Assembly: GCA_049282095.1 (NCBI GenBank)
Contig: JBAPTI010000031.1
Coordinates: 11,419 to 75,418 of the forward strand
Origin: Chthoniobacterales bacterium
GTDB taxonomy: Bacteria; Verrucomicrobiota; Verrucomicrobiia; Chthoniobacterales; UBA6821
DNA length: 64,000 nucleotides
Reading direction: 5' to 3'
A program made the position numbers and the translations under genes. This document shows positions 28,984 through 63,929 of this stretch, one piece after another. How positions within the stretch are numbered: position 1 is the stretch's first letter; each line of letters begins with the position of its first letter. Below the pieces are notes generated by a model that worked only from the letters and a program-made list of their open reading frames with translations, ran no database searches and had not been told where the DNA came from.

Positions 28984-29162
28984 GTCTGTTATCAGGAAAT
29001 TCAACCCCGATCCCGGACCCTCGTTGAAGTGTGAAACTGTGAAAAAAAGGTTAAAACTGAACGCCGATCGGAGTTCGGGTTAAAAGTGTGAAATTCAGGG
29101 TGATTAACCGGAGCATTGCGCTGCCGTCTGCCCGTTCTAACTCTTTTAACTGTTCAACCTTT

Positions 29163-43129: not shown

Positions 43130-43139
43130 GGGAAGGCGA

Positions 43140-43333
43140 AAGGCGAACCAAGTCGCTGGGAAGCGGCGCGGAAGACTGTGAGTGCAGCGAACAGCCCTGA
43201 AAGGCGGCACTGCTTGCCGGGAGGCAAGTGCCGTCAAAGGCGAACCAAGTCGCTGGGAAGCGGCGCGGAAGACTGTGAGAGCAGCGAACAGCCCTGAAAG
43301 GGCGCCACGGCTAGCCGGGAGGCAACTGGCGTG
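43140..43333. repeat. Tandem direct repeat, 2 x 97 bp
   Basis: The units start at 43140 and 43237. The first ~66 nt are identical except for one position, and the last ~30 nt diverge. Each unit ends in a GGGA-looped hairpin. Confidence 0.85.
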
Positions 43334-43434
43334 AATGATGACGGATGAATCATGAGGGATCCTATCGATAGGAGCTTTCCCCTCTATCAAGCCTCACGCT
43401 CTAAATCCCTAGAGCCTATCTGGCGGGGTGGTGA

Positions 43435-43815
43435 CTATTTCTGGGTCGGTTCGCCTGCTGCCTTCCAGCCTGCGATGCCGGGCTTGAAGTGCTGAACGTT
43501 GGTGTACCCGAGTTTGGCGGCGGCTTCGGCGGCACGTGCGTAGGAGCCGCAATGTTCATTGCCGCAGTAGGCGACGATCAGGGAGGACTTGTCGGCTGGC
43601 AGGAATTTTGCGAGATCGGCGGTGTGGGCTGTGTAGTCGATGGCTCCCGGGATATGTCCGTTCGCGTAGGTGACGGGACCGTTCACATCGAGCAGGGTCA
43701 CCTTCTTCGCGGCGATCGCCGATTTCAGGTCGGCCAGGCTGATGTCGGGATAGGATCCCGCAAAGGCATTGATGGAGAGGAGTGAGAGGGCCAGGAGGGA
43801 GAGAAACTTCTTCAT
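43435..43815 (-). CDS. Secreted rhodanese-domain sulfurtransferase
   Basis: Signal peptide MKKFLSLLALSLLSINAFA, a rhodanese fold and active-site loop YCGNEHCGS. The rest of the 325-aa ORF-track ORF runs through the MITE and was discarded. An alternative start is at 43833. Confidence 0.8.
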   Translation of the reverse strand: MKKFLSLLALSLLSINAFAGSYPDISLADLKSAIAAKKVTLLDVNGPVTYANGHIPGAIDYTAHTADLAKFLPADKSSLIVAYCGNEHCGSYARAAEAAAKLGYTNVQHFKPGIAGWKAAGEPTQK

Positions 43816-43898
43816 GGGTTGAACGTAATCCATACTTCCGATTCCGCCATCGAAAAGATTCGTGAATCGCGGGGATTCTCCGACAGGGAAGATCCTTA

Positions 43899-44433
43899 AA
43901 GCGCTGATTAAATCGCATAGAGGCCGTTGCGGGAAGCCGTAGCGGATGCGAAGCAACGACCGGGCAAGCCATGGGCCGCGGGCAAGGCGGCTTCGCGGGC
44001 GCATCCCCGCAGTGGGCTGCCGTAACGGATGCGAAGCAACGGCCGGGCAAGCAAAGCGCCAAGCCAACACAGTTGGCCCCCGTGCCACGCCACGAAGCCA
44101 AAGGCTTTGTGGCCCCCGGCTGGTTATCTCCGCAACCCGGAGGGCTGAAGCCAGTTGTCGATTTTTGCCTCGCCGTCTCCCGACGGTCTCGTCCTCCGGA
44201 CTGCTTCGCAGGCTACGACGCGGCTCCCGCCGCTCGTCGTTGCGGCGATGCTCGCTCGGGCGAGACCGCTGGGGGTATTGACTCGCTCGCTCCCGCTCGG
44301 CTCGCCCTGACGGGTTTGCCTCCGGCAAATCTACCCAAGCCGCACCCGCAGCTACGTGTTGCCCAGCACTCGCGCCTTCAAAAATCAGCAAATGCTCTTC
44401 AGCGGCCTTCATGGGATTTAATCAGCGTTTCCC
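43899..44433 (-). mobile_element. MITE, mosaic long copy (~535 bp) with at least 5 internal insert modules
   Basis: It shares both ends and the backbone with the 276-bp copies. It carries two direct copies of the 33-nt module CCGTARCGGATGCGAAGCAACGRCCGGGCAAGC plus other inserts. The left TIR lacks the terminal GGG. Confidence 0.8.
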
Positions 44434-50151: not shown

Positions 50152-52515
50152 ATGAATTCCCCAGTTCCCATGACTCCTGCCGCGAATCATCCTGCCCCGG
50201 GGCATGGCCATCACGCCCATGCGGGCGGATTTGACTGGCGGGAGTATTACTTTGCGCTGAAGGCCCGTGCATGGATCGTCATTGCGTGCGTGATCCTTGC
50301 GACGCTCTGGGGAGTCTTCTCTGCGGCGACCCAGCAGGGACTCTACACCGCGCGCTGCGTCCTCTTCATCGAACAGGTCAAGAGCCGGGTGCTCAACACC
50401 AAGGTGGAGGATGTCCGCGATGACCAGATCAAGTCGATCGACATGATCAACACCCTCGTCGACCTCCTCCGCAGCTATCCCTTCGCGCTTCGTGTGGTCA
50501 ACCACCTCCAGCTTGCCCGCGACCGCGAGTTTCTGGCCGCGGTCGGACTTTCCGGGAAAGAGACATCCCCGGAACGCGCCGCCGGCGCCCTTGCGAGGAT
50601 GGTCAGCCCCAGCTACCGGCTCAACACCCGCCTCATCGACATCAACCTCACCACCCGGAACCCCTCCCTCTCCGTCAAGCTGGCCAATGCCTACGCCGAG
50701 GAATATCTCCGCTACATCCATGACCAGAGGGCCGAGGCCACCCGTTCCGCCAGCACCTTCCTCATGGAAGAGTCCGACAGGTTGCGCAAGAAGATGAAGG
50801 CATCCGAAGAGGGGATGCAGAACTTCCGCGAGCGCGAGCGTGCGGCATCCATGGAGTCGATGCTGCTCGAGGCGCAGAACCAGCTCACCCAGCTCTCCGC
50901 CCGCCAGAGCGCCATCCAGTCCAAGCTCACCCAGATCAACAGTGACCTCGAGATCGCCCGCGCGAACAAGGGGAAGACCGAGGAACTCCTCCGCCTTCCC
51001 AGCGTCGCCGGAGAGCCCAAGGTTGCCGCGCTGGTCGCCCAGCAGTCGAGCCTGGACAAGCAGTTCATCCTCATCCAGCAACGCTACCGCGCCAAGCACC
51101 CCGCCTACATCAACATCAAGACCCAGCTCGACCTCGGCAAGTCCGAGCTGGACAAGGTGCTCAACGACATCGTCGGCCTTCTCGATTCCATCCGCAGCAG
51201 CCTGCTGGCCCAGCAGGCCGCCGCCAATGCCGAGCGCGAGAGCGCCGAGAAGCGCCTGCTCGAGGTCACCAGCAAGTCCATCGAGTACAACGACCTCAAG
51301 CGCGAGTTGGAGAGCGACACCGCCCTCTACGGCGCCGTCATTGGACGCATCAAGGAAGTCGATGTCACCAAGGAACTCTCCGAATCCCCCGTCGTGATCC
51401 AGGAAAAGGCGAGCGGAGCCTTCCCTGTCAGCAAGCCCCCCCTCAAGATCCTCCTCCAGGCCATGCTATCCGGATTGGCCGTGGGTGTCGGCATCGTCCT
51501 TGCCCTGCACAAGCTTGATACCAGCACCAAGAGCGTCGATCAGCTCGAGCAGCTCACCGGTATCGACGTCGCCGCGGCCATCCCGCAGATCGGCGGCAAT
51601 GCCGCCGCCCGCTTCGGCATCTTCACCAAGGAACAGCAGCAGCAACTGCTCGGATCCTGGAAATCGGCCAAGACCATGATCCTTGACGCATCGGTGCCTC
51701 CGCGTGCGCGACTCTCGCGGATCCACGAGATCCTCAGTCCAGCCATCGCCATGATCGCCCACCCCCACATCTCCACCGTGCTTCCGCGCGGCGGCGAGTT
51801 GGTGGTGAAACAGGACCGCAGCGGCGTCGTGGCGGAAGCCTTCCGCTCGCTTCGCGCCAGTGTGGCCATGAACGCCCGCGTCGAGAGCCAGCGCTCCTTC
51901 CTCCTGACCAGCGCCATCCCGTCGGAGGGCAAGTCCTTCTGCACCTCCAACTTCGCCGTCACCCTCGCACAGCAGGGACTCAGGACTCTCCTCATCGATG
52001 CCGATCTCCGCAAGCCCACCATCTCCGGCATCTTCTTCGGGATGAACCGCAAGCCCGGACTCACCGAAGTCCTGATCGGATCGGCCTCATTGACGGATGC
52101 CGTGCACTCCTCGGGCGTCGAGGGACTCTCGATCCTCACCGCCGGGGGGCGCTCCTCCAATCCCTCCGAACTACTGGCCGGAAAGCCCTTCCGTGATTTC
52201 ATGGTCGAGGCCCTCAGGCAGTATGACCGCGTCGTCATTGATTCCGCCCCCATCCTGGCTGTGAGCGACACGCTGCTTCTCGCCCCCTCCGTCGATGTCG
52301 TCTGCCTCGTAGTCCGCGCCTTCATGACCCCGCGCAAGATGATCCAGCGGGCTCTCAAGTCGCTTCAGGATATCCATGTGAAGCCCGCCGGACTTGTCTT
52401 CAACTGCATCCCTGCCGGCAGCGAGGCCTATTCCTACTCCGGCAAGTATTACGGCTCCTACGGCAGCAAAGGAGTGTATGGAAGTCCGGTTGAAGGGGAA
52501 AAAGCCGAAGGTTAA
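50152..52515 (+). CDS. Polysaccharide co-polymerase / BY-type tyrosine autokinase (Wzc/GumC-like)
   Basis: N-terminal Wzz-type TM and coiled-coil periplasmic domain. The C-terminal kinase has Walker A SAIPSEGKS, Walker B VVIDSAP and a Tyr-rich tail (YSYSGKYYGSYGSKGVYG). Confidence 0.88.
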   Translation: MNSPVPMTPAANHPAPGHGHHAHAGGFDWREYYFALKARAWIVIACVILATLWGVFSAATQQGLYTARCVLFIEQVKSRVLNTKVEDVRDDQIKSIDMINTLVDLLRSYPFALRVVNHLQLARDREFLAAVGLSGKETSPERAAGALARMVSPSYRLNTRLIDINLTTRNPSLSVKLANAYAEEYLRYIHDQRAEATRSASTFLMEESDRLRKKMKASEEGMQNFRERERAASMESMLLEAQNQLTQLSARQSAIQSKLTQINSDLEIARANKGKTEELLRLPSVAGEPKVAALVAQQSSLDKQFILIQQRYRAKHPAYINIKTQLDLGKSELDKVLNDIVGLLDSIRSSLLAQQAAANAERESAEKRLLEVTSKSIEYNDLKRELESDTALYGAVIGRIKEVDVTKELSESPVVIQEKASGAFPVSKPPLKILLQAMLSGLAVGVGIVLALHKLDTSTKSVDQLEQLTGIDVAAAIPQIGGNAAARFGIFTKEQQQQLLGSWKSAKTMILDASVPPRARLSRIHEILSPAIAMIAHPHISTVLPRGGELVVKQDRSGVVAEAFRSLRASVAMNARVESQRSFLLTSAIPSEGKSFCTSNFAVTLAQQGLRTLLIDADLRKPTISGIFFGMNRKPGLTEVLIGSASLTDAVHSSGVEGLSILTAGGRSSNPSELLAGKPFRDFMVEALRQYDRVVIDSAPILAVSDTLLLAPSVDVVCLVVRAFMTPRKMIQRALKSLQDIHVKPAGLVFNCIPAGSEAYSYSGKYYGSYGSKGVYGSPVEGEKAEG

Positions 52516-52790
52516 GGAAGCGCTGATTAAATCGCATAGAGGCCGTTGCGGGAAGAACTGGCCGCGGGCAAGGCGGCTTGGCACGAGCATCCCCGCAGCG
52601 GGCTGTAAGTGCCAAGCCAACGCAGCCCCCGGCCTGTTATCTCCGCAACCCGCAGGGCTGACGTCATTTGTCGATTTTTGCGGCGTTGCTTGCTAGGGCG
52701 AGACCACTGCGGGTATCGCCCAGCGCTCGCGCCTTCAAAAATCAGCAAATGCTCTTCAGCGGCCTTCATGGGATTTAATCAGCGTTTCCT
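52515..52790 (-). mobile_element. MITE, full copy (276 bp), TA flanks
   Basis: TIRs AGGAAGCGCTGATTAAATC and GATTTAATCAGCGTTTCCT. A TA sits at 52513-14 and at 52791-92. The first element base completes the TAA stop of the Wzc-like gene. Confidence 0.88.
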
Positions 52791-52847
52791 TAAGGAACCG
52801 CAGTTCCCTGCTCTCACTTTCTCCTTGGTTCTTTCTTCCCCTTCAGG

Positions 52848-52885
52848 GTTTTAGCCTTTAGCCTTCGGCCTTTAAACCTTTCCCC
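52848..52885 (+). repeat. Period-7 leader array GTTTTAG CCTTTAG CCTTCGG CCTTTAA ACCTTTC CCC directly abutting the uxs ATG
   Basis: Read directly from the sequence. The same GTTTTAG-initiated array type occurs at 54625, 56319 and 57816. Confidence 0.75.
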
Positions 52886-53821
52886 ATGCGTATCCTCATC
52901 ACCGGCGGAGCCGGATTCCTAGGTTCCCACCTCTGTGACCGCCTCATCGAGCAGGGTCACGACATCATCTGCCTCGACAACTTCTTCACCGGTCGCAAGG
53001 CCAACATTCAGCATCTCGTCGGCAATCCCCACTTCGAACTCGTCCGTCACGACGTGATCGACCCGTTCAAGTTCGAGGTCGATCGCATCTACAACCTCGC
53101 CTGCCCCGCTTCCCCTCCTCACTACCAGTACAACCCTATCAAGACCATGAAGACCTCCGTGGTGGGGGCCATCAACTGCCTCGGCCTCGCCAAGAGGGTC
53201 AAGGCACGCGTCTTCCAAGCCTCCACCTCCGAGGTTTACGGGGATCCCAACGTCCATCCCCAGCCCGAGGCCTACTGGGGCCATGTGAACCCCATCGGAC
53301 TACGCTCCTGCTACGACGAGGGGAAGCGCGCGGCCGAGACCCTCTTCTTCGACTATCACCGCGAGAACGGGGTCGACATCCGCGTCATCCGCATCTTCAA
53401 CACCTACGGCCCCCGCATGCTCCCCGACGACGGACGCGTCGTCTCCAACTTCATCGTCCAGGCACTTCAGGGCAAGGACCTCACCGTCTACGGAGAGGGC
53501 TCCCAGACACGCTCCTTCTGCTATGTCGACGACCTCGTCGACGGCTTCATGCGCTTCATGGAGCAGGAGAAGATCGTCGGCCCCATGAACCTCGGTAACC
53601 CCGGCGAGTTCACCATGCTCCAGCTCGCCGAACTCGTCCTCAAGAAGGTAGGCGGCAAGAGCAAGATCACCCACCTCCCGCTTCCTTCCGACGATCCGAA
53701 GCAGCGCCGTCCCGACATCACCCTCGCCAAGGAAACCCTCGGCTGGGAACCGAAAGTCCCTCTCGAAGCCGGCATTGAGAAGACCATCGCGTATTTCAGC
53801 GAAGCGCTTAAGAAAGGCTAA
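52886..53821 (+). CDS. uxs: UDP-glucuronate decarboxylase (UDP-xylose synthase)
   Basis: SDR with [14 protein letters not shown], the catalytic YDEGKR motif, and UXS-like sequence along its full length. Confidence 0.9.
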
Positions 53822-53910
53822 AGGCGAAAGGCTAAAGGCTAAAGGCTAAAGGCTAAAGGCTAAAGGCTAAAGGCTAAAGGCTAAAGGCTAAAGGCGAAAG
53901 GCGAAAGGAT
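53813..53910 (+). repeat. Heptanucleotide tandem array, 14 units (AAAGGCT x10, AAAGGCG x3, AAAGGAT x1)
   Basis: Units were counted from 53813 in steps of 7. The array starts in the last codons of uxs and contains its TAA stop (53819-21). Confidence 0.95.
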
Positions 53911-54113
53911 GGAACCAACGGGCGTTCCAAGTCTCTTGGAAGAGATGAGGAGAAATTTCCGTAGGCAAGCCCGTGAGGGCGGCACGGTTTTGCGAGTTCA
54001 AAGTGCCGTTCAACCGAGCGGGAGCTATCGAGTGCAAAACATGCGCGGAAGAGCCCGCGAAGCGGGGCCCGGAGTTCGGGTTGAAAGGCTCTCTTAAAAA
54101 AACGCCGTCTGCA

Positions 54114-54467
54114 GTGGTGAAAAACGATCTTCAGGAGCGAACAAAGGCCTTTGGATTGCAGGTCATTGATCTTGTCGAGCGTCTACCTATGAGCAGATCC
54201 GGTGACGCGGTTGCCCGGCAACTTATTCGATCAGGCACCTCGATTGGCGCGAATTACCGTGAGGCTAGCCGAGCCCAATCCAAGGACGACTTCATTCACA
54301 AGGTGGCACTCTCCACCAAAGAAGCATCCGAGGCGGCGTTCTGGCTGGAATTGATATCCGAATCGCCCCATTTAAAAACTGCGGGCTCAGTTGAACTTTC
54401 TCAAGAGGCTAGGGAGCTATTGGCTATCTTCACCACGATAGGAAAGAACGCCAATTCAGGACATTGA
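54114..54467 (+). CDS. Four-helix-bundle protein of the 23S rRNA intervening-sequence (IVS) protein family
   Basis: AFGLQVIDLVERLP...ARQLIRSGTSIGANYREASRAQSKDDFIHKVALSTKEASEAAFWLELI is the family signature as I recall it. A GTG start at 54114 gives the typical ~117 aa, so the upstream part of the track ORF is probably non-coding. Confidence 0.8.
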   Translation: MVKNDLQERTKAFGLQVIDLVERLPMSRSGDAVARQLIRSGTSIGANYREASRAQSKDDFIHKVALSTKEASEAAFWLELISESPHLKTAGSVELSQEARELLAIFTTIGKNANSGH

Positions 54468-54582
54468 CCGGGGCTATTTCCTTCCCTCTTCTTGTTTTAT
54501 CCTTTATCTTCCCCTCTTTGCCCATCAGAACCTCTCTCGCCCTTATCCTTCCGTCTTTCCCACATTCCCGTGTTTCTGATTT

Positions 54583-54660
54583 TTTAGCATTTCACCTTTA
54601 GCCTTTCCCTTTTTTCTCTTTCAGGTTTTAGCCTTCAGCATTTCACCTTCAGCCTTTCCT
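54583..54660 (+). repeat. Period-7 pyrimidine-rich leader array (TTTAGCA TTTCACC TTTAGCC TTTCCCT ... GTTTTAG CCTTCAG CATTTCA CCTTCAG CCTTTCC) abutting the ugd ATG
   Basis: Eleven 7-nt units were read from 54583 to 54659. It contains stretches complementary to the AAAGGCT array. Confidence 0.75.
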
Positions 54661-56028
54661 ATGTCCACCACCATCTGCTGTCTCGGCGCCGGTTATGTCG
54701 GCGGTCCCACCATGGCCATGATCGCCGCCAAGTGCCCCGATATCCGGGTCACCGTCTGTGATCCCAACGAGAAGCGCATTGCCGCCTGGAATTCCGACGC
54801 GCTTCCCGTTTACGAGCCCGGCCTTCAGGAAGTCGTCGAATCCGCCCGCGGGAAGAACCTCTTCTTCTCCACCGATGTCCGCAAGGCCATCCGCGAATCC
54901 GACATCATCTTCGTCAGCGTCGGCACCCCGACCAAGACCTACGGAGTCGGTGCCGGCCGCGCCGCCGATCTCAAGTACATTGAGGCTGCTGCCCGCATGA
55001 TCGCCGAGGAGGCCGTCGGCCCCAAGGTCATCGTCGAGAAGAGCACAATTCCCGTGAAGACCGCCGAGGCCATGCTCACCATCCTCCGGTCCAATTCCAA
55101 GAACGGCACCTTCCAGGTCCTCTCCAATCCCGAGTTCCTCGCCGAGGGAACGGCCATCGACGATCTGAACAATCCCGACCGCGTCCTCATCGGCGGCGAG
55201 CAGACCCCCGAGGGACTGGCCGCCATCGAGAAAGTCGTCTCCATCTACGCCCGCTGGATCCCCCGCGAGAAGATCCTCACCACCAACCTCTGGTCCTCCG
55301 AGCTTTCCAAGCTCGTGGCCAATGCCTTCCTCGCCCAGCGCATCTCCTCGATCAATTCGATTTCGGCTCTCTGCGAGGCTACCGGGGCGGATGTCGACGA
55401 GGTCGCCCGCGCCATCGGCAAGGACTCGCGCATCGGGCCCAAGTTCCTCAAGGCCTCCGTCGGCTACGGCGGCTCCTGCTTCCAGAAGGACATCCTGAAC
55501 CTCACTTACCTCTGCCAGCACTTCGGCCTGCCCGAGGTCGCCGCCTACTGGGAGAGCGTGGTGAAGATCAACGACTGGCAGAAGGCACGCTTCAGCGGCC
55601 GCATCGTCCGCGACCTCTTCAACACCGTCAACGGCAAGCACATCGGTATCCTTGGATTCGCCTTCAAGAAGGACACCAACGACACCCGTGAGACAGCCGC
55701 CATCGCCGTCTGCCGCGACCTTCTCGCCGAAGGGGCCAAGGTCGTCGTCTACGATCCCCAGGTCGGGGAGGAACAGATCCGTTCCGAGGTCCTCGGCACC
55801 GGAACCAACCCCAACCTCGTCGTCGTCAAGACCGCCATGGAAGCCTGCGACGGTGCCCATGCCGTCGCCATCCTCACCGAGTGGGACGAGTTCAAGGATC
55901 TCGACTTCAAGAAGATCCACGACGGCATGCTCAAGCCCGCCTTCCTCTTCGACGGACGGAATATCCTGCCGCACGCCAAGCTCAAGGAGATCGGCTTCCG
56001 TCTCTTCGCCATCGGCAAGCCTGCATAG
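54661..56028 (+). CDS. ugd: UDP-glucose 6-dehydrogenase
   Basis: N-terminal Rossmann [13 protein letters not shown], catalytic GGSCFQKD, and UGDH-like sequence along its full length. Confidence 0.92.
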
Positions 56029-56113
56029 AGCGGGCTTGTTCAATGGGGGAGGGGAGCGGACTCCGCGCTCTGCCCAGAGCCTTGGTTCCCAGCTACCAGC
56101 TACCACTCTTTCT

Positions 56114-56162
56114 TTGTTCATTTTCTGTTGAACAAATGCGTTGTTCGATTATTTTTGAACAA
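56114..56162. promoter_or_regulatory. Two tandem inverted repeats TTGTTC-N10-GAACAA (56114-56135 and 56141-56162): candidate operator
   Basis: Both half-site pairs are perfect and have identical 10-nt spacing, with a 27-nt centre-to-centre distance. An extra half-site TTGTTCAA lies at 56036-43. Confidence 0.55.
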
Positions 56163-56390
56163 TCAGGCCCCTGCTTTTCCAAGCGTGAAGCCCCTTCATC
56201 CAGACCCCCCGCTGGTAAAACCCTCCCCGGTTGCCAAGGGCGGCAGCATTGCCCGTCATCCCGCCGCCTTGGTTGCCTTTCCTGGCCTTTCGACAACCCT
56301 CAACCTCCCTCATCTCGTGTTTTAGCTTTTAACTTTCCGCTTTTTCACTTTCCCCCCTAACAGCCTAACAGTCTTCAGTCTAAAAGCCTT

Positions 56391-56867
56391 ATGCAAACCC
56401 TCACTCCCTTCCAGCGTGAATCCGTGGAGCTATTCGTGGGGGCCTTTGCGGTTCTCTCCCTGCCGCGTTCCCTGGGGGAGATCTACGGCCTCATCTACAG
56501 CAGTGAGGAGCCCTTGGCCTTCGACGATCTTGTCAACCGCCTCGACCTGAGCAAGGGCTCCGTGAGCGAGGGTTTGCGCCTGCTACGCTCCCTCGGGGCC
56601 GTGAACCTCGTACATGTTGCGGATTCCCGCAAGGAGCATTTCACCGCCGAGACCAGCCTCCGCAAGCTAGCCGGCGGCTACCTCCGCGACCGCATCGAGC
56701 CCTACCTGAGTGGAGGGGAGGCACGGATCAACTCCCTCCGTAAGGTATGCGACAACGACACCTCACGGTCCGATTTCCAAGAGAAGCGCATCAACCAACT
56801 CCTCTCCTGGCACCGCTTCTTCAGCAAAGTCCTGCCTGTCTTCAAGACCCTCGCAGGGAAGACATAA
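56391..56867 (+). CDS. GbsR/MarR-like winged-helix transcriptional regulator
   Basis: 158-aa ORF. LPRSLGEIYGLIYSSEEPLAFDDLVNRLDLSKGSVSEGLRLLRSLGAV resembles the GbsR-type wHTH. Confidence 0.65.
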   Translation: MQTLTPFQRESVELFVGAFAVLSLPRSLGEIYGLIYSSEEPLAFDDLVNRLDLSKGSVSEGLRLLRSLGAVNLVHVADSRKEHFTAETSLRKLAGGYLRDRIEPYLSGGEARINSLRKVCDNDTSRSDFQEKRINQLLSWHRFFSKVLPVFKTLAGKT

Positions 56868-57048
56868 TGAAGGTTTAGACGATATAAATAAACGGCTCCT
56901 CACTGTTTTCAAGGCACTCAAGGGGCTCCTCTGTTATCATGGCATGTTCCCTCCTACCCCTTCGCACTCTCTCCTTTTGAACTCCGTGCTGGATCATGTT
57001 TTTTCTTCCTGCTCATTCACTGATTGACAGAGTACAATACTACACAGT

Positions 57049-57381
57049 ATGGTATTTATTGAATTCCCCGCTTTTACCAAGACCATCACCAAACTGCCTG
57101 ATGAAGACTATGCCACCTTTCAGCATGAACTCCTCGTTGACCCAGAAATGGGCGATCTCATCCGTGGCACGGGTGGATTTCGCAAAGCTCGAATGGCCTT
57201 TCCAAGCGTGGGAATCGGTAAGAGCGGAGGAGCTCGCGTCATCTACCTCCATATCAAAGAACTACAGACCATCATCCTGGTAACACTCTATGCAAAATCA
57301 AAAAAATCAGACCTCAGTCGCGCGGAAGAAAACGAACTCCGTTTCCTCGCTGCGCAAATCCGCAGCACTCTCGGTGCTTGA
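57049..57381 (+). CDS. RelE/HigB-2-like toxin
   Basis: 110-aa ORF with F..F.K....L.....F...L...P..G.LI.GTGG.RK.R and GKSGGARVIY motifs typical of HigB-2-type toxins. The gene order is toxin first. Confidence 0.7.
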   Translation: MVFIEFPAFTKTITKLPDEDYATFQHELLVDPEMGDLIRGTGGFRKARMAFPSVGIGKSGGARVIYLHIKELQTIILVTLYAKSKKSDLSRAEENELRFLAAQIRSTLGA

Positions 57382-57682
57382 TGGATTGGAGTCATTCAGT
57401 GGTGCTAGCCTGATTGAGGCGACACAGGAGGGGGTCGCAGCTCTTAAGGCAAAAAAAACACTGCGAACCAGTAAGATCGCTCCCCCTGTCACTCTTGATC
57501 CCCGGCAGATCGCCGAAATCCGTTCCTCGCTGAATGCCAGCCAAGGGGTTTTTGCCTCCTACCTCGGTGTCAGCAAAGCGGCGGTCGTGGCTTGGGAATA
57601 CGGAGTACGTCAGCCCTCAGGAGCGGCCTTGAAGCTCCTGTCGATTGCCCGTAAGAACCCCAGCGTCCTAGTCGCCTCCTGA
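57374..57682 (+). CDS. XRE-family HTH antitoxin (HigA-2-like)
   Basis: The HTH IRSSLNASQGVFASYLGVSKAAVVAWEYGVRQPSGAALKLLSIARKNP is typical of the family. The start is assumed at GTG 57374, overlapping the toxin stop, but TTG 57386 is also possible. Confidence 0.65.
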   Translation: MLDGLESFSGASLIEATQEGVAALKAKKTLRTSKIAPPVTLDPRQIAEIRSSLNASQGVFASYLGVSKAAVVAWEYGVRQPSGAALKLLSIARKNPSVLVAS

Positions 57683-57697
57683 AAGCCTGCCTTCCTT

Positions 57698-57795
57698 GGG
57701 AGCCGCTGATTAAATCGCATGGAAGCCGTTGCGGGAAGCTGTAACGGATGCGAAGCAACGGCCGGGCAAGCCATGGACCGCATCCCTGCGGCTTG
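57698..57795 (-). mobile_element. MITE fragment (one end, module-containing subtype)
   Basis: GGGAGCCGCTGATTAAATCGCATGGAAGCCGTTGCGGGAAG followed by the CTGTAACGGATGCGAAGCAACGGCCGGGCAAGC module. The other end is absent. Confidence 0.75.
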
Positions 57796-57926
57796 GTGCT
57801 CGACTCGGTTTCCCCGTTTTAGCCTTAAGCCTTTAAACTTTAGCCTTTCGCTTTTGACGGCACTTGCAGGGAGGATCTAAAGAGATTCCAATTGATGGTT
57901 TACTTTAGGGCGATATAAATAAAGCG

Positions 57927-58043
57927 ATGTTCAACCGGTTTGTGGGTCAGAGTTTTGAAAAAGACTTTGCCAAGCCCTTTGTCCACATCCTCTTTGGCGC
58001 TCGGCAGACCGGTAAGTCTTCACTGGTCCGAAGTCTGATGTGA
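57927..58043 (+). pseudogene. Truncated 5' fragment of an AAA-ATPase gene (AAA_14/DUF4143-type)
   Basis: It encodes MFNRFVGQSFEKDFAKPFVHILFGARQTGKSSLVRSLM then a stop. There is a Walker A GxxxxGKS but only 38 codons, whereas full-length family members are about 400 aa. Confidence 0.6.
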
Positions 58044-58301
58044 TGAACCACGACCAGATCCGCAGACTCTGATCCGGCCAATTTTTCGCTTTGTAACGCT
58101 TCAACGTTCTAACCTTTTCAACCTCCTCGAGACCCCCTCCTTCCCTAACAGTCCAACAGCCTTTTGTCTGGCGATCTCCCCGGATCAGCCATCCTCGATC
58201 TGCAGATCTTCGGACTACTCGCCTAAGCCTCGTATGACATCGACGAAGGAGAGGCAAGCAAAGCCACTTACCCAAGCGCCTTTTGTCTAAAAGCCTCATC
58301 C

Positions 58302-60044
58302 ATGATCACATCATTTTTTAAACTCCTCTCCCGCTGCTACCGGCTAGCCCTTCCCTATGGGCGGTTGAAGCTTTTTGCTGTTCTTGGACTGATTCTCTTC
58401 AATGGCCTGCTTCAGCTTATTGGCGTCACATCGATCTTTCCGTTCTTTGCGCTGGCAGCTGATCCCGAGCGTATTCGCAACTCCACCTTCGGGACTTGGT
58501 TTCTAAACTTGTTGCCGCAAATGAATAATAACCACTTGCTGGTTGTTGCAGGATGCTTCTCGATTCTCATGCTGGTGATCGCCAGTCTGGGAAGCATGGT
58601 GAGCGAATACCTGCGCGTACGCTATGGGTATGGTTTCTCTCATTGGTTGAGAGGACGTATTTTACGATCATACGCAAGTCAGCCCTACAGCTATTTTCTG
58701 CGGAGAAACTCCGCAGCTCTGACTCTGAGGGTTTTTGATATTCAGAATTTTACCCAGAGCGTGCTTCTTCCAATTGGAGAAATCATTACCAAGTTGGTGT
58801 TGGTCGCCCTACTGCTCGGTACTTTGATCCTCGTGCAACCATGGATTGCATTAGGGGGGATTGTGATTCTCGGGGGATTCTACTTCATAGTGTTTTTGTG
58901 GGTGCGTCCCCGTACCAAGGTAGTTGGCGACGGATTACAGCGTCACAGTGTTGAGTTCAATAAGAATACGAATCAGTTGCTACATGGCATCAAGACAGTC
59001 TTTATCCATGAGAAGAGCAGTTTTTTTATCCAAAGAAGTCTTGAGCATTCCCTGCAGATCGGGCGATATCAGGGATTGATCCCACTCTATAGCAACGGGC
59101 CCCGCTACCTGATCGAGCCGATAGCCTTCGGGGGGCTCGTGGCTATTGTGATCGTGCTGGCAATCCAAGGGCGCCCATTTTCCGACATCTTGCCCAACCT
59201 TTCTGTGATGGCTCTGGCTGCTGCCAAGCTTTTACCAGCGCTCCAACTTCTCTACAGCCAGCTGGTTACGGCGGCTTCCAATAGCTATACCTTGGGCCAG
59301 TTAGAGGAGGAGATCATGGAAATCGAAGAGGAGGCATCCCTCGTTCTACAGGATTGCCCCAAGAAGGAGTCCCTATTCTTCTGCAAGGAGATTAGTCTGG
59401 AGAATCTTACCTTTGCCTATCCCTGTTCGGCACATGACACCATTGAGAGTTTCTCGCTAACCATTCGAAAAAACGAGTCCATTGGTATTGCTGGACCATC
59501 GGGCAGTGGAAAATCGACGCTTGTGGATCTCATCCTTGGGCTGCACTCACCTAGGAGCGGTAGACTTCTAGTGGATGGCATGCAGCTCACAAAAAAAACT
59601 CTGAGGGCCTGGCGCCAGATGATCGGCTATGTTCCTCAAGATATCTACCTCTTGGACGACACAGTGCAGGCAAACATTGCCTTCGGCATCAAACCGGAAG
59701 AAATTGACCTAAATGCCCTGAGAGAAGCGGCGAGTGGCGCCCAGATTCTTGAATTCATTGAAAAAGAGCTACCCGAAGGATTTAAGACAACTGTGGGTGA
59801 ACGTGGTGTTCGACTCTCAGGTGGACAACGTCAAAGAATCGGTCTTGCCCGCGCCCTCTACCATCACCCTCAGGTACTCATTCTTGATGAGGCAACTAGT
59901 GCGCTGGACCATAATACTGAGGCTGCAGTCATGGATACCATTCATCAACTCCAAGGAAAGATGACCATGATCACGATTGCACACCGGCTCAGTACACTGG
60001 AACGTTGTGACAGGGTTGTGGAATTAGTAAGGAAAGTCTCATGA
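58302..60044 (+). CDS. ABC exporter, fused TMD-NBD (MsbA-like)
   Basis: Six N-terminal TM helices, Walker A GPSGSGKST, signature LSGGQRQR and Walker B LILDEATSALD. Confidence 0.88.
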   Translation: MITSFFKLLSRCYRLALPYGRLKLFAVLGLILFNGLLQLIGVTSIFPFFALAADPERIRNSTFGTWFLNLLPQMNNNHLLVVAGCFSILMLVIASLGSMVSEYLRVRYGYGFSHWLRGRILRSYASQPYSYFLRRNSAALTLRVFDIQNFTQSVLLPIGEIITKLVLVALLLGTLILVQPWIALGGIVILGGFYFIVFLWVRPRTKVVGDGLQRHSVEFNKNTNQLLHGIKTVFIHEKSSFFIQRSLEHSLQIGRYQGLIPLYSNGPRYLIEPIAFGGLVAIVIVLAIQGRPFSDILPNLSVMALAAAKLLPALQLLYSQLVTAASNSYTLGQLEEEIMEIEEEASLVLQDCPKKESLFFCKEISLENLTFAYPCSAHDTIESFSLTIRKNESIGIAGPSGSGKSTLVDLILGLHSPRSGRLLVDGMQLTKKTLRAWRQMIGYVPQDIYLLDDTVQANIAFGIKPEEIDLNALREAASGAQILEFIEKELPEGFKTTVGERGVRLSGGQRQRIGLARALYHHPQVLILDEATSALDHNTEAAVMDTIHQLQGKMTMITIAHRLSTLERCDRVVELVRKVS

Positions 60045-60691
60045 TAAATCTTCTTTCCTACTTGAAATCAATTGCAGGAGGGTGGATCGCATTCCTCCGA
60101 AGGAAACAATTACAAGAGGCATGTAGATACCGTTACTGGCGACAAAAAGTCACAATTAATCCGAGGGCTCGGATGAATGGGGAACGTGGTATTGAGTTGG
60201 GGGAGGGCACAGTCATATATGAAAGCGCTCACTTATGTGCCGGATACCTCTTGCCTGATGAGTCAATTCAGAGCGAACCCATTGGTTCAATTGTGATCGG
60301 AAGAAACTGTACTGTGATGCCTGGTGCAATTCTTGCTACCTATGGCGGTAGGATTGAAATTGGAAGCAATGTAAGCATCAATCCAAATGTTATTATCTAT
60401 GGAAATGGAGGGGTTTGGATTGGAGATAAAACTCGCATTGCAGCCCAAGTCGTAATTGTCGCTCAGAACCACATCTTTGCCGACTCCTCGAGGCCAATAA
60501 TGGAACAGGGGTTAAGTACTAAAGGAATCGTTATTGGAAATGATGTTTGGATAGGTGCTGGAGCTAAAATTCTTGATGGGATTACCATTGGAGATGGTGC
60601 GGTGATCGGCGCGGGTGCCGTTGTTAGATCTGATATATCTCCCTACAGCATTGCGGTTGGAGTTCCGGCTAGAGAGGTATCTAGAAGATAG
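60041..60691 (+). CDS. Hexapeptide-repeat (LbH) acetyltransferase
   Basis: Repeated [LIV]-G-x4 hexapeptides (IGSNVSINPNVIIYG...IGNDVWIGAGAKILDGITIGDGAVIGAGAVV). It has a 4-nt overlap with the ABC gene. Confidence 0.85.
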   Translation: MINLLSYLKSIAGGWIAFLRRKQLQEACRYRYWRQKVTINPRARMNGERGIELGEGTVIYESAHLCAGYLLPDESIQSEPIGSIVIGRNCTVMPGAILATYGGRIEIGSNVSINPNVIIYGNGGVWIGDKTRIAAQVVIVAQNHIFADSSRPIMEQGLSTKGIVIGNDVWIGAGAKILDGITIGDGAVIGAGAVVRSDISPYSIAVGVPAREVSRR

Positions 60692-60724
60692 TCTTCCGGA
60701 AAATTGTTCTTAAGAGGTAATCAG

Positions 60725-62956
60725 ATGAGCTTCTCAATCGTTTATATAGTTATAAGCAACGGGAGGGATGAGCATGCCGATATGGCATTGGCTTCAATGT
60801 TATCTACTAAAATTAGCAACCCTCTGATTAGGATTTCTTTGCTCTGTGATGAGAACTCTGCCAAAAGTATCAAAAACAACAAGCATAGAATTCTTAAGGT
60901 ATGTGATGAATTAATACCGGTTACCGTGCCGGATGGTGATGGGACATTCAAAAATCGCTGGATTAAAACTCAGTTGCCCAAATTCATCCAAGGAGATGCA
61001 CTTTATCTTGATTCTGACACTCTTGTTCGATTGCCTTTAAATAAGTTGCCAGACTTGGTCGAGGAGCTGGGAATGGTTGCCAACCACAATGGTGTTAAAA
61101 TCTACGAACAATTCTGGCATGAGGATAGAAAGATCTTCACGAAAATGGGCTGGTCAACTCCTTATATCCAAACTTATTACAATGGGGGGGTACTGTTTTT
61201 TAAGCACTGTTCAAGAACAATTTATTTTTTTGAACAGTGGCACAAATTTTGGTGTGAGAGCACCGATAAGACAGGGAGGCTTCGCGATCAGCCTTCTCTA
61301 AACCAAGCAATCTATTCGAGTAATGTTAAATGCGAGGAACTCCCTTCTTCCTATAATGCACAGATTCCAAGCGACTGGATAAAAAGTCACAATGCCGTGA
61401 TCTGGCATTTCTTTTCCTCATCGCATGATAAATCCAAAACTATATTTGATCACATTCTCTCAGCCATCCCTCGTTCTTCATTGGACAGTCTTAAGCACTT
61501 GATTGGAGAAGTTCTCCAAAGAACTGAACCATGGAAAAACGGGGACTGGATATCTTGCGCTATTTTGCGAGAGTTAACGGAAACAAGGCGGCCTACTATA
61601 CCTGAAACTCACTGGTTAAATGGATGCAAGTTAAAAGCGATAATATATTATATTATTTGCAAGTCTGAATGTGTCTTGGGATACATCTTTTTCAAATCCA
61701 ACATTTCAAAAAAATGTGGGTTTACATCAAAAGAAGAACCAATAAAATTATTAAAAAAACAATTTAGAATTGTTGTTAGTTCTCCTACGTTTGAACTAAG
61801 TGGAGCCAATGTTTTTTTGGCCAAGTTGCTCGATCAACTTCATCAATATGGAGTGGAATCCGATTGGGTTATTACTCATCACTCACCGAATGATATTCAT
61901 CCCTGGTTAGGTAATCACAAGTTCAAGGTTCATAAATTGCCAAACACGAATGTTAAAGAAGTTCGAAGGAGGCAGGAAATCCTGTTGGAATTTCTGAATA
62001 GCCGTCAACCTTGCGTCTATATTCCCAACTACGATGCAGATATGGTTTGTATCACACCGGCGCTTCCAGATGAGGTAAAGAGCGTTTTGATCCTGCACTC
62101 TGATGAAGCATTCTACTATTCTCTTGCTCGAGAGTACGGTTCTTATTTTGATAAGATTGTTGTTGTGAGTTGTGCAATCTACAACAAACTTATAAATTCA
62201 GTATACACACTCAAAGAGAAGACATGTCAACTGTCTTATGGAGTAGATCATGTTTCCAAAAATCATCGTATTCAGCGTGTACCATCCCTCCCTCTTACAG
62301 TAACCTACTGTGGGCGAATCTCGAAGATCCAGAAACGCATTCACGACCTTGTAGCAATCATCAATCGCTCCGATCAGGAGTGTCTGCCGATTGAATATCA
62401 CATTGCCGGAACGGGCTTAGACGAAGAAGAATTCTTTAACCTTGTGAGCATTCCCCTGAGCAAGGGAAAGGTGGTGAATCACGGGTTCCTCTCCAATGAC
62501 GAGACCCGGAAATTACTCGATCATAGCGACGTTTTCATCATGACATCCGATTATGAGGGGCAGTCCATCGCGCTTCTTGAGGCCATGATGCGCGGATGTG
62601 TTCCGGTTGTGACGGCAATTGACAGTGGTGTTGACGAATTGATTATCCATGGATCCACTGGATTCATGGTGCCTGTTGGAGATATTGAAGGCTTTATGGG
62701 GGTGATTAGGACGCTTTCCGAAGACTTATCCAAAGTGATTAAACTGAGTGAAAATATTTCGGATTTTATGGCGAATGGGAAATACAGGATTGATCGGGCT
62801 GCCCTAGAGTATAAGTCGTTGTTTGAATCACTCTTTGATAAACCCAAAAAATACCAAGCAAGGGGTTCAAAAAAGATCCAACTTCCCAAGCATTACAAGC
62901 TTTTAAATCGGTTGAAAAAAAGATTTTTTGGTGATGAAAACCACAAAAAGATATAA
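60725..62956 (+). CDS. Two-domain glycosyltransferase (N-terminal GT-A/GT8-like with DxD; C-terminal GT4-type GT-B)
   Basis: N-terminal YLDSDTLV (DxD) and YNGGVLFF. The C-terminal EGQSIALLEAMMRGCVPVVTAIDSGVDELIIHGSTGFMV is the GT4 EX7E region. Confidence 0.75.
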   Translation: MSFSIVYIVISNGRDEHADMALASMLSTKISNPLIRISLLCDENSAKSIKNNKHRILKVCDELIPVTVPDGDGTFKNRWIKTQLPKFIQGDALYLDSDTLVRLPLNKLPDLVEELGMVANHNGVKIYEQFWHEDRKIFTKMGWSTPYIQTYYNGGVLFFKHCSRTIYFFEQWHKFWCESTDKTGRLRDQPSLNQAIYSSNVKCEELPSSYNAQIPSDWIKSHNAVIWHFFSSSHDKSKTIFDHILSAIPRSSLDSLKHLIGEVLQRTEPWKNGDWISCAILRELTETRRPTIPETHWLNGCKLKAIIYYIICKSECVLGYIFFKSNISKKCGFTSKEEPIKLLKKQFRIVVSSPTFELSGANVFLAKLLDQLHQYGVESDWVITHHSPNDIHPWLGNHKFKVHKLPNTNVKEVRRRQEILLEFLNSRQPCVYIPNYDADMVCITPALPDEVKSVLILHSDEAFYYSLAREYGSYFDKIVVVSCAIYNKLINSVYTLKEKTCQLSYGVDHVSKNHRIQRVPSLPLTVTYCGRISKIQKRIHDLVAIINRSDQECLPIEYHIAGTGLDEEEFFNLVSIPLSKGKVVNHGFLSNDETRKLLDHSDVFIMTSDYEGQSIALLEAMMRGCVPVVTAIDSGVDELIIHGSTGFMVPVGDIEGFMGVIRTLSEDLSKVIKLSENISDFMANGKYRIDRAALEYKSLFESLFDKPKKYQARGSKKIQLPKHYKLLNRLKKRFFGDENHKKI

Positions 62957-63929
62957 ATCTGCAAAACTCGTCATAGTCGGGTACGACTTTCACAGCGAGG
63001 GAGGGGCGTGGCGCTCTATTTATCGTTATTTCAGGTTCTGTGAAGCAATAGGTGAAGATGTGATGCTCATTGACCGTCGAAAGCAGCGTACGCTACGTCG
63101 CTTGGCATGCGCTTTTCTTTTCAGCCCTAAGATTCTTTTTAACGGCATAGAGTCATTCTCCCGCTGGGAGGCGATAGCGGCCTGTCTTCTCCGAAAGGAC
63201 ATACTTGTTTATCTCCATGATACGGAGAGCAGCATACGGGCTTTTTATCAATCCAGTCCGATAAAATATCGGTTTTTCAGATTGATCCTGAGGCGTAACA
63301 CTATTCTGGTTGTTTCCAAGCAAATGGAGGAATATTATCGGCGGGATCTAGGCGTTCAGCGATGCCAAGTGGTGCGTGAGGCGGTGGTATTACCTGAAGT
63401 GCCAGAGTTTGATCCAACTTATCGTCATATCGTCATGGTTGGATCGGTTGAGGAACGAAAGGGAGTTGCGCTTTACTCCGAGGTGGCCCGACTTGCGCTG
63501 GAAAAGGGGCTGAAATGGAAGTTTCATTGGGTAGGAGCGCTGGCAAGTCAGTCCTTGGGAGTGCTCTCCGAAGATATAAGGTGGTGGGGTTGGCAGGATT
63601 CTCCAACTGATTTTATCAAGAAAACTGATGTATTCTTTCTCTCTTCGGTTGATGACCCATTACCTCTCGCTTGCTTGGAGGCGATCTCTCTAGGGAAACG
63701 TTGTCTCGTATACCGGGGCACTGGAATCTCCGAACTGTTGGATGGGGTGGGGGGATGCGCCGTCATGGAGCATTATACCCCCGAGGAGGCTCTGATGCAG
63801 CTGGGGGCGATCCTTAATCAGGAGCCAGATTCACAAAGACTACTTGAGATTGCCACTCAGGAGGGTTCGCTTCCAGCCTTTGCGGAGAAAGTCAACCAAG
63901 TTTTAAACCCCGACACTCGTCTTCCATGA
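62928..63929 (+). CDS. GT4-family glycosyltransferase
   Basis: MVGSVEERKGVALY...DVFFLSSVDDPLPLACLEAISLGKRCLVYRGTGISELL is a GT-B C-terminal domain. The start is 62928 or 62934. Confidence 0.75.
   Translation: MVMKTTKRYKSAKLVIVGYDFHSEGGAWRSIYRYFRFCEAIGEDVMLIDRRKQRTLRRLACAFLFSPKILFNGIESFSRWEAIAACLLRKDILVYLHDTESSIRAFYQSSPIKYRFFRLILRRNTILVVSKQMEEYYRRDLGVQRCQVVREAVVLPEVPEFDPTYRHIVMVGSVEERKGVALYSEVARLALEKGLKWKFHWVGALASQSLGVLSEDIRWWGWQDSPTDFIKKTDVFFLSSVDDPLPLACLEAISLGKRCLVYRGTGISELLDGVGGCAVMEHYTPEEALMQLGAILNQEPDSQRLLEIATQEGSLPAFAEKVNQVLNPDTRLP

Follow-up and report, generated by a model that had tools for sequence, protein, structure and literature searches.

Heptamer arrays ahead of start codons in a Chthoniobacterales exopolysaccharide locus, probable copies of an arm of an intervening-sequence-like gene cassette

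Introduction

Bacteria are known to carry tandem heptameric repeats beside the start and stop codons of genes, and some 23S rRNAs contain intervening sequences (IVS) that encode a small protein between inverted repeats. Here we describe a locus in which these two kinds of element meet. It lies in a 64,000-nucleotide stretch of a Chthoniobacterales bacterium genome (GenBank assembly GCA_049282095.1, contig JBAPTI010000031.1, positions 11,419 to 75,418 of the forward strand), which we call the window and within which all positions are counted. Four arrays of heptameric words, each beginning with GTTTTAG, were noticed in the exopolysaccharide (EPS) locus of this window, and the original prediction took them for a leader element without described counterpart. 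We find that the feature is real and represents known kinds of element in a new form, not a new translation signal. In our judgment the arrays are probably copies of one arm, the pyrimidine-rich one on the right, of an IVS-like gene cassette with hairpin arms, and a complete copy of this cassette separates the genes uxs and ugd.

Heptameric repeats have been described in several lineages. In Xanthomonas (GGGAATC) and in Nostoc and Anabaena (GGGGAYT) the purine-rich strand is found past stop codons and its complement before start codons, with frequent inverted pairs; the repeats are 89-93% intergenic, lie mostly between co-directional open reading frames (ORFs) and undergo transcription, and closely spaced inverted pairs number 70-75 per Xanthomonas genome (Rehm et al. 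2015, PMC4692102). The TAACTGA repeats of marine Beggiatoaceae, cyanobacteria and Bacteroidetes consist of 2-6 forward heptamers ending one to a few nucleotides before starts, where they replace a recognizable Shine-Dalgarno (SD) sequence, and roles in translation via S1, Csp or Csr proteins have been proposed for them (MacGregor 2015, PMC4679880). In Nostoc PCC 7120, 3-4 contiguous heptamers occur genome-wide within 100 nt of start codons or promoters (bioRxiv 10.1101/2022.06.06.494920). An IVS for comparison is that of Coxiella 23S rRNA, in which an ORF of the intervening-sequence protein (IVP) family lies between inverted repeats forming a 28-bp stem that RNase III cuts in the middle (PMC4990558). 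IVP genes have also been noted inside cas operons (PMC3936711).

The main value of the present locus is the link that it exposes between heptamer repeats and IVP cassettes. IVP is pentameric and is a homologue of Avd, the accessory protein of diversity-generating retroelements (DGRs). The family is abundant across phyla, and we know of no function for it outside DGRs; to our knowledge, the heptamer repeats beside start and stop codons of cyanobacteria, Xanthomonas and Beggiatoaceae have likewise been catalogued without explanation. We are aware of no earlier statement linking the short tandemly repeated repetitive (STRR) sequences of cyanobacteria with IVP genes. A literature search, in which older subscription-journal papers were thinly covered, found no report that links heptamer arms to IVP genes, and the novelty of the link is provisional to that extent. 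If the repeats are IVP cassette arms, two puzzles of about thirty years would be joined and could be tested together.

Results and Discussion

Four heptamer arrays in the EPS locus

The sequence GTTTTAGCYTT occurs four times in the window (52848, 54625, 56319 and 57816), always on the plus strand, while dinucleotide shuffles lead one to expect 0.01 occurrences; the four arrays are thus borne out. Their 7-nt steps were assessed against the best lag in composition-matched shuffles. Array 1 has a lag-7 self-match of 0.61 (P=0.0005), array 4 one of 0.66 (P<0.0005), and array 2, taken at its full extent of 54583-54660, reaches 0.56 at lag 7 and 0.67 at lag 14 (P<0.0005). The period also holds in the first half of array 3 (56319-56353; lag-7 self-match 0.61, P=0.03), but not in its second half (56354-56390), which is made of other words (CCTAACAG) and has a best lag of 8. 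Tandem Repeats Finder (TRF) reports period 7 at 52850-52874 and 57818-57848, period 14 at 54583-54612 and 54632-54658, and period 8 at 56356-56389. When at most two mismatches are allowed, the window contains 27 matches to the word pair AGCCTTTAGCCTT, compared with 0.88 expected.

Three of the arrays abut start codons, as had been proposed: arrays 1, 2 and 3 end at 52885, 54660 and 56390, with ATGs at 52886, 54661 and 56391, and form the last 36-72 nt ahead of these codons. For array 4, about 70 nt separate its end from the ATG (57927) of a 38-codon ORF. The arrays at start codons are short and imperfect (75-77% TRF matches), G-poor and, taken alone, unstructured (fold z about 0). Their units are contiguous, tandem and intergenic, and AAAGGCT/AGCCTTT contains no run of three or more G. 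Of 51 TRF arrays in the window, 29 fall within the roughly 15% of the DNA that is non-coding, purine-rich ones after stops and pyrimidine-rich ones before starts. Rfam holds no family for the arrays, for the cassette or for the terminal-inverted-repeat (TIR) element described below, at gathering and at permissive thresholds. A scan of 52300-58400 for sigma-70 promoters and intrinsic terminators returned fewer sites than in shuffles and placed no transcription start site. Two other kinds of repeat were considered for the GTTTTAG arrays. A CRISPR array is ruled out by words that are contiguous, without spacers, and an integron attC site is unsupported when judged from the core-site consensus alone (RYYYAAC ... 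GTTRRRY), whose GTTRRRY is mismatched by GTTTTAG.

A complete cassette between uxs and ugd

Two features next to array 2 had been overlooked: a near-perfect array of AAAGGCT, the reverse complement of the AGCCTTT word, and an IVP gene between this array and array 2 (Table 1). The IVP product of 118 aa, with a likely GTG start at 54111, matches its family in Pfam (E 7.5e-15), TIGR02436 (E 2.8e-21; 75.8 bits, cutoff 24) and PDB entry 2RLD (E 2.4e-17). The AAAGGCT array is 73-78% complementary over 45-53 nt to positions 54583-54661 (inverted pairs I1-I8), with a score of 66 compared with a shuffle maximum of 31, and the core of array 2 is complementary to 53812-53843 with a score of 44 (shuffle maximum 23). 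Both arms are paired in the minimum free energy (MFE) and centroid folds of 53790-54680. In the same folds the left arm pairs with the pyrimidine-rich region 3' of the IVP stop, which holds the cassette's own copies of the right arm (GTTTTATCCTTTATC... at 54494 and TTTAGCATTTCACCTTTAGCCTTTCCC at 54583-54612) and is absent in relatives without the cassette.

A complete cassette (53813-54660) is inserted between uxs and ugd, its left arm expanded, and array 2 is the right arm of this inverted-repeat cassette around the IVP gene, precisely the ancestral outer arm. The anatomy consists of a mostly purine-rich left arm (about four words) starting from a stop codon, the IVP cargo, and a reverse-complement right arm reaching to a few nucleotides before the next co-directional start. 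It recurs around IVP homologues among 80 metagenome and 8 plasmid loci. Array 2 belongs to a cassette and is not a free-standing leader element. IVP is the only ORF of the cassette, which holds no transposase or recombinase, and a profile scan of the six-frame translation of the window revealed neither another IVP gene nor a remnant of one.

In the 23S rRNA IVS of Leptospira and Coxiella burnetii, too, a PF05635/TIGR02436 protein stands between terminal inverted repeats of similar length, inside the host transcription unit and in sense orientation. The present cassette shares the protein family and the complementary termini, but not the location in 23S rRNA. Its host is an mRNA operon spacer from the uxs stop (53821) to the ugd start (54661) and not helix 9, 25 or 45, and Rfam found no rRNA in the window. 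It further differs in the existence of IVP-less copies and, possibly, in having tandem 7-nt words as arms.

Table 1. Features of the cassette and of the related arrays in the window
Feature	Position	Strand	Remarks
Weak left-arm words AAAAGCCGAAGGTTAA, candidate partner of array 1	52497..52515	+	overlap the Wzz/AAA_31 stop codon
TIR element of about 270 nt, 37-nt terminal inverted repeats (GCTGATTAAATC...)	52516..52793	-	between weak left arm and array 1
Array 1: GTTTTAG and AGCCTTT-type words	52848..52885	+	runs into the uxs ATG (52886)
Left arm, (AAAGGCT)x13.7	53813..53908	+	TRF score 171, 96% matches
5' region of the cassette, left arm to IVP start	53909..54110	+	weak alignment to the motif at 43135-43345 and in L001 4745-4895
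IVP gene (TIGR02436/PF05635 four-helix bundle, "23S rRNA intervening-sequence protein")	54111..54467	+	
Pyrimidine-rich region 3' of the IVP stop	54470..54624	+	families D2/D3, pairs I22-I25
Array 2 core, outer right arm: GTTTTAGCCTTCAGCATTTCACCTTCAGCCTTTCCT	54625..54660	+	runs into the ugd ATG (54661)
Array 3a: GTTTTAG and CTTT-anchored words	56319..56353	+	solo arm, no left partner
Array 3b: period-8 words of the CCTAACAG type	56354..56390	+	TRF 4.4 copies; to the regulator-gene ATG
Array 4: GTTTTAG and AGCCTTW words	57816..57857	+	solo arm about 70 nt 5' of the ORF of a 38-aa P-loop fragment

Insertion polymorphism among close relatives

Loci of close relatives (handles with L) were collected from soil and freshwater metagenomes by Ugd homologues of 92-99% identity; those with a name at NCBI are Chthoniobacterales bacterium (Verrucomicrobiota), and no protein identical to the Ugd of the window turned up in an exact look-up. 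At ten orthologous loci only 48-72 nt separate the neighboring genes uxs and ugd, and neither an IVP gene nor an AAAGGCT array is present; the cassette of the window is therefore an insertion. Compared with L001, 822 nt of the window (53799-54620) replace about 46 nt, including the last uxs codons, and no target-site duplication was seen at the uxs/ugd junctions. The left arm has rewritten the C-terminus of the uxs product, which reads ...YFSEALKKG* in the window and ...YFREALKKG* in L137, compared with ...YFKG(T/A)LAK* in the cassette-less relatives (...YFKGTLAK* in L001); the uxs stop codon (53819-53821) falls inside the first unit of the arm and is provided by the repeat itself. L137, whose IVP is 88% identical, has the same order uxs-IVP-ugd. 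Its arms have 4.4 copies; the left one (...AAAGGCTAAAGGCTAAGGGAGAAAGGCTAAAAC) ends in CTAAAAC and the right one (GTTTTAGCCTTTAGCCTTCAGCCTTCAGCCTTTCC..ATG) begins with GTTTTAG. When the left arms are compared, copy number differs between these close strains, 13.7 in the window and 4.4 in L137.

Such unequal copy numbers within an EPS locus (Wzy_C, Poly_export, Wzz, uxs, ugd) might point to phase variation, in which a heptamer number switches or tunes surface-polysaccharide genes. There is experimental precedent in the simple sequence repeats (SSRs) of hmw1A and hmw2A in Haemophilus influenzae, tandem 7-nt repeats between promoter and start codon whose action involves 5'-untranslated-region (5'-UTR) structure and RNase III processing, the 5'-UTR element being an RNase III target (PMC12721329). 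We consider contingency repeats a very improbable explanation here. The long perfect array of the window is the left arm past the uxs stop, where changes in copy number are expected to shift no uxs frame because the stop codon lies in the first unit. The Haemophilus repeats also differ in kind, being long, perfect, phase-variable tracts at two paralogous adhesin genes that have no complementary arm or cassette. The arrays at start codons, being short and imperfect, are poor substrates for slippage, and similar arm pairs flank housekeeping genes (gltX, folD, ribF, glpK).

The leaders themselves change quickly. L001, L133 and L135 share the 36-nt ugd leader (GTTTTAGCCTTCAGCMTTTCACCTTCAGCCTTTCCT) but for one difference (A vs C), while that of L126-L131 is wholly different despite 99% identity of Ugd, so that the leaders are hypervariable and dispensable in sequence. 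The uxs leader is common to L001, L133 and L135 up to ...TTCAGGGTTTT and then diverges. In about 90 kb of DNA from relatives, GTTTTAGCYTT was found only at the ugd leader of the array 2 type and in L137.

These comparisons bear on the possibility that the arrays are free-standing regulatory leaders, tandem sites at which ribosomal protein S1, a cold-shock or Csr-type protein or some other factor tunes SD-independent translation, the nearness of an IVP gene being incidental. Three arrays that end 1 nt short of an ATG, leaders that are G-poor and unstructured, and an ugd arm kept in cassette-less relatives are consistent with this explanation; SD cores are unenriched in the window, SD sequences are reported absent in Verrucomicrobiales, and equivalent proposals have been made for the Beggiatoaceae and Nostoc repeats. 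It nevertheless seems unlikely to us. Since the leaders of the same genes differ completely in L126-L131, the repeats are dispensable for expression; array 4 adjoins no functional gene; and the explanation accounts neither for the complementary array past the uxs stop nor for the association of arrays with IVP flanks described below (92% vs 7.7%).

The original prediction was right that the array leaders lack a separate SD sequence, but this is not special to these genes. An SD core at -20 to -4 is present in 9 of 48 genes of the window, compared with 26% of random 17-mers, and amounts to no enrichment; the G fraction upstream of starts is 0.19 vs 0.30 overall. Verrucomicrobiales have been reported to lack SD sequences genome-wide (PMC10798248); the host belongs to a different order, Chthoniobacterales. 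The missing SD is typical of the lineage, and the window offers no evidence that its "leader" arrays are a new translation signal.

The same anatomy around other IVP genes

Scanning metagenomes for the IVP protein yielded 80 loci (L137-L216) with IVPs of 47-88% identity. Period-7 or period-14 arrays are present in 145 of 157 IVP flanks of 250 nt (92%) and in 66 of 853 control windows on the same contigs (7.7%), a 12-fold enrichment, and array density is 4.16/kb near IVP and 0.31/kb farther off. Arms have a median of 4.4 copies (interquartile range 3.7-4.7). The words vary by cassette, with about 30 units that include AAAGCGG, AAAGTAG, ATTTCGG, AATTGCG and AAAGGCT. Of the 63 loci with arrays on both sides, 46 have upstream and downstream words that are reverse complements of each other with at most one mismatch (permutation mean 12.7, maximum 22), and the purine fraction is 0.67 in arrays upstream of IVP and 0.32 downstream. 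The position relative to neighboring genes is also shared: left arms start within 20 nt of a same-strand stop codon at 29 of 45 loci, mostly immediately after it, and right arms end -12 to +15 nt from the next same-strand ORF start at 25 of 41. Words are mostly co-inherited with IVP, as the nearest IVP neighbor carries the same word in 57 of 79 cases (17% for random pairs).

Another possibility would be that the arrays are neutral by-products of replication slippage and local gene conversion in pyrimidine-rich, low-complexity leaders, with no function and no link to a cassette. Heptamers are the commonest class of long bacterial SSRs and have been attributed to polymerase slippage (Mrazek 2007, as cited in PMC4679880). 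Arm length does vary (13.7 vs 4.4, and up to 29 copies), leader evolution is very fast, and many other leaders in the window hold short repeats of other words. This explanation is nonetheless quite unlikely: slippage offers no source for a matched reverse-complement array across a specific gene (46 of 63 loci) and leaves both the narrow mode at 4.4 copies and the 12-fold enrichment beside IVP genes unexplained.

Greatly expanded arms of 19-29 copies were observed up to 250 nt upstream of IVP in L171, 10-149 nt after IVP in L141, in the flanks of L222 and at 5662-5835 of L185. With the 13.7 copies of the window, they indicate that copy number is unstable at single loci despite the mode at 4.4.

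Taxon names are available for a set of eight annotated plasmid loci (L217-L224) from Nostoc punctiforme, N. flagelliforme, Anabaena cylindrica, Planktothrix, Pseudanabaena, Chlorohelix, Bernardetia and Treponema saccharophilum. Clear inverted heptamer arms are seen in six of them (Nostoc punctiforme, N. flagelliforme, Planktothrix, Chlorohelix, Bernardetia and Treponema saccharophilum), and the cassette layout thereby spans cyanobacteria, Chloroflexota, Bacteroidota and Spirochaetota. On these plasmids the IVP genes lie between genes of the same direction, in DISARM, restriction-modification, cas and other operons, with 12 of 14 annotated neighbors oriented as the IVP gene; the earlier observation of IVP genes within cas operons (PMC3936711) fits this. 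A search of a phage collection gave only two IVP matches, both unannotated. A contig scan with GTTTTAGCYTTNARCNTT was too degenerate to inform on enrichment: about 1,100 matches are estimated to arise by chance in 596 Gb, and the scan gave 120 loci from scattered taxa, all of them without IVP in the fetched DNA.

Across L137-L224, IVP cassettes favor polysaccharide/O-antigen operons and defense operons (DISARM, restriction-modification, cas). Judging from N-terminal sequence, the polysaccharide-operon genes downstream of IVP cassettes include those of an epimerase, an asparagine synthase, a carbamoyltransferase and a Wzt-type ABC ATPase.

Solo arms and arm pairs without IVP

Sequence relationships suggest that arrays 1, 3 and 4 are probably copies of the right-hand arm of the cassette as well. 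Arrays 3 and 4 stand as solo arms and belong to the AGCCTTT-type word family; array 4 is 84-89% complementary to the AAAGGCT left arm (pairs I5 and I9-I18), and array 3b is duplicated at 58143-58302 (direct repeats D14 and D18). The concern voiced with the original prediction, that the arrays might be remnants of one duplicated segment, is correct in part, as the four arrays are related copies of one arm (family D3) and not independent. Solo arms could have originated as excision footprints, as gene-conversion copies, or as landing pads that preceded a cassette. For array 1 the best complement within 1.5 kb upstream is AAAAGCCGAAGGTTAA (score 22), which pairs with 52860-52880 when 52485-52900 is folded (z -10.1), in the MFE as well as the centroid structure. 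The center between the two holds a cargo other than IVP, namely the unrelated TIR element, whose terminal repeats are 86% complementary (inverted pair I15).

This non-coding TIR element of about 270 nt (GCGCTGATTAAATCSCATRGAGGCCG) has other copies at 15327-15600(+), 27230-27496(-) and 43850-44433(-) and partial ones at 21950-22070 and 57699-57800. It artificially lengthens the ORFs 15504-16316, 26531-27340 and 43435-44412.

Arm pairs without IVP were found at L178, L183 and L163, where they use the word of the resident cassette and enclose only 25-90 nt. That of L178 (2695-2843) reads from a stop codon through (AAGCGGA)x4, a 90-nt center (GC hairpin, T-run), GTTT(CCGCTTT)x4 and GCTT to an ATG, with a fold z of -7.2. 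The window has IVP-less inverted pairs of 8-9-nt words at 462-567, 10428-10511, 1176-1328, 14584-14700, 18746-18892 and 29020-29162, of which the first two are copies of one family; examples of their words are GGGATGAAG/CTTCATCCC and CACGAAAAA/GTTTTCGTG. Of the first five, which were folded, four gave z from -3.1 to -7.3, and 18746-18892 gave only -1.9. The genes flanked by these pairs are housekeeping genes (ribF, gltX/yqeY, folD).

Possible mechanism and status of the cassette reading

The cassette occupies the whole intergenic spacer, and its right arm thereby automatically becomes the 5' leader of the downstream gene. As SD sequences are not used, translation should not suffer from a leader that has no purine-rich site for ribosome binding. 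In a read-through transcript from the upstream gene, the two arms would pair in a helix of about 30 bp or more. If the IVP-carrying IVS of 23S rRNA are a guide, RNase III would cut this helix, looping out or releasing the cargo RNA and separating the flanking cistrons; such processing would make an insertion tolerable inside an operon. Both the pairing in RNA and the cleavage are suggested by analogy only. A transcript starting within the cassette would instead bear a free right arm as an open leader, and solo arms would be footprints or gene-conversion copies of a cassette arm.

Several observations weigh against this reading. The candidate left partner of array 1 is non-significant on its own, its score of 22 lying below the shuffle maximum of 25, and for arrays 3 and 4 neither a complementary partner within 1.5 kb nor a nearby remnant of IVP was found. 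In L001, L133 and L135 the right arm at ugd is present while the cassette is missing and the uxs C-terminus is ancestral, so that an arm can exist before, or without, a cassette, and the 8-9-nt arm pairs of the window likewise occur without an IVP gene. The 80 metagenome loci were selected as kin of this IVP, and the rule derived from them covers that sample. IVPs of 70-78% identity can carry different words. GTTT/AAAC at the inner arm ends was found at only 8 of 47 and 10 of 47 loci (background 5.6%), a modest enrichment, and is a trait of AAAG-type words and not a boundary of all cassettes. The position of arms at stop and start codons may just reflect insertion into short operon spacers. 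Finally, mismatches between arms show no wobble excess (G.U 50, A.C 55; P=0.70); this test thus lends no support to pairing in sense RNA, and a role as inverted repeats at the DNA level is equally compatible with these counts.

The last point leads to a strong alternative, which does not exclude the cassette reading: the arms may be DNA-level TIRs of a mobile element with autonomous, IVP-carrying copies and empty copies resembling MITEs (miniature transposable elements with inverted repeats). They would serve as sites of recombination or transposition, and the leader position would be a by-product of the places that tolerate insertion, with no RNA function. Beyond the absent wobble bias, this is suggested by inverted repeats of constant length (median 4.4 words), by presence and absence among close relatives, by empty arm pairs that share the word of the resident cassette, and by the co-inheritance of word and IVP sequence (57/79 vs 17%); for IVS themselves it has been proposed that they are remnants of transposition or mobile elements (PMC4990558). 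However, the cassette has no transposase or recombinase and a 118-aa IVP as its sole ORF, about 46 nt were replaced at the uxs/ugd junctions with no target-site duplication, and the co-orientation with neighbors (12 of 14) is not predicted by DNA symmetry alone. We therefore regard a purely DNA-level role as possible, though doubtful.

More tentatively, and with still less expectation that all parts will hold together, a broader reading may be considered. Heptamer-armed IVP cassettes could form a cross-phylum, operon-resident class with IVP-carrying and empty MITE-like members, made harmless by folding out of the transcript as RNase III cuts an arm helix of about 31 bp, a device that they would share with the IVP-carrying IVS of 23S rRNA. 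Solo arms could be the source of STRR, GGGAATC/GGGGAYT and TAACTGA-type repeats, and the pentameric IVP could bind the roughly 4.4 words of an arm, possibly one per subunit, and help the cassette to persist or spread. If the repeats are cassette arms, they would explain hypervariable leaders and gene ends in polysaccharide and defense operons, the over-extension of ORFs by gene callers, and the presence of IVP genes in cas, DISARM and restriction-modification operons.

Comparison with described repeats

The original prediction knew of no described element of this kind; heptamer repeats are in fact already described in Xanthomonas, Nostoc and Beggiatoaceae. Like the repeats of Rehm et al. (2015), those of the window are tandem 7-nt units, intergenic, mostly located between co-directional ORFs and of the same polarity at stops and starts. 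They differ in lineage (Verrucomicrobiota) and in having words without G-runs, from which no quadruplex is expected; IVP genes are unmentioned in the Rehm et al. paper (PMC4692102). The TAACTGA repeats are similar in being forward repeats at SD-less start codons, with arrays 1-3 ending 1 nt before the ATG. However, they use one fixed word genome-wide, with one inverted pair reported and no associated gene, whereas the words here vary by cassette and pair with a complementary arm. TAACTGA or a rotation of it was not found among the about 30 IVP-arm units, and the units of the window are of the AGCCTTT type.

The heptameric STRR sequences of cyanobacteria had been named as the closest analogy, and the analogy is apt, since the plasmid IVP genes of Nostoc, Anabaena and Planktothrix lie between heptamer arrays. 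STRR sequences and the Nostoc PCC 7120 heptamers also resemble the arrays in comprising 3-4 contiguous heptamers near start codons. The STRR words of heterocystous cyanobacteria differ from the words found here. MITEs and repetitive extragenic palindrome (REP) hairpins are similar in occurring as short, intergenic, non-coding hairpin copies beside a protein-coding full version, with presence/absence polymorphism. They differ from the present elements, which have no transposase or REP-associated tyrosine transposase (RAYT), have tandem heptamers as arms and left no target-site duplication that we could find.

Flanking genes and other repeats of the window

Family searches confirm the uxs-type epimerase/dehydratase and ugd identities, and the locus comprises an EPS gene set of Wzy_C, Poly_export, Wzz/AAA_31, the uxs-type epimerase/dehydratase and ugd. 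The gene after array 3 had been called GbsR-like, for which there is only a sub-threshold match to CudC (E 9.6e-11). The gene after array 4 had been called a truncated ATPase; its 38-aa product has no family match. Two TTGTTC-N10-GAACAA palindromes (56114-56135 and 56141-56162) lie 5' of the regulator gene at 56391 and are plausibly its operators, by prediction. The segment 56391-58142 is a strain-specific insert with the CudC/GbsR-like regulator, a toxin-antitoxin pair of RelE and helix-turn-helix type and the 38-aa P-loop fragment. It is bracketed by direct leader repeats (CCCTAACAG...GTCTAAAAGCCT) at 56355-56390 and 58143-58302, and relatives L126-L130 lead directly from ugd via a 52-aa ORF to an ABC transporter, without this insert. 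At 60000-63000, GC content falls from about 0.60 to 0.38-0.43 across hexapeptide acyltransferase and glycosyltransferase genes, probably a horizontally acquired portion of the polysaccharide locus.

Two further repeats were seen elsewhere in the window. A motif of about 100 nt (GAACCAAGTCGCTGGGAAG...CGAACAGCCCTGAAAG...CCGGGAGGCAAGTG) is present in two tandem copies at 43135-43345, after a stop at 43129 and just past a short AAGGCGA array; it has kin in the wzz-uxs spacer of L001 (4745-4895) and, weakly, upstream of the IVP gene (53915-53990), and it may be a structured RNA or a "center" of cassettes. Arrays of the 8-mer CGCAGAGR at 10392-10415 and 17680-17702 lie 10-17 nt past the stops of two plus-strand genes and represent another purine-rich word family at this position.

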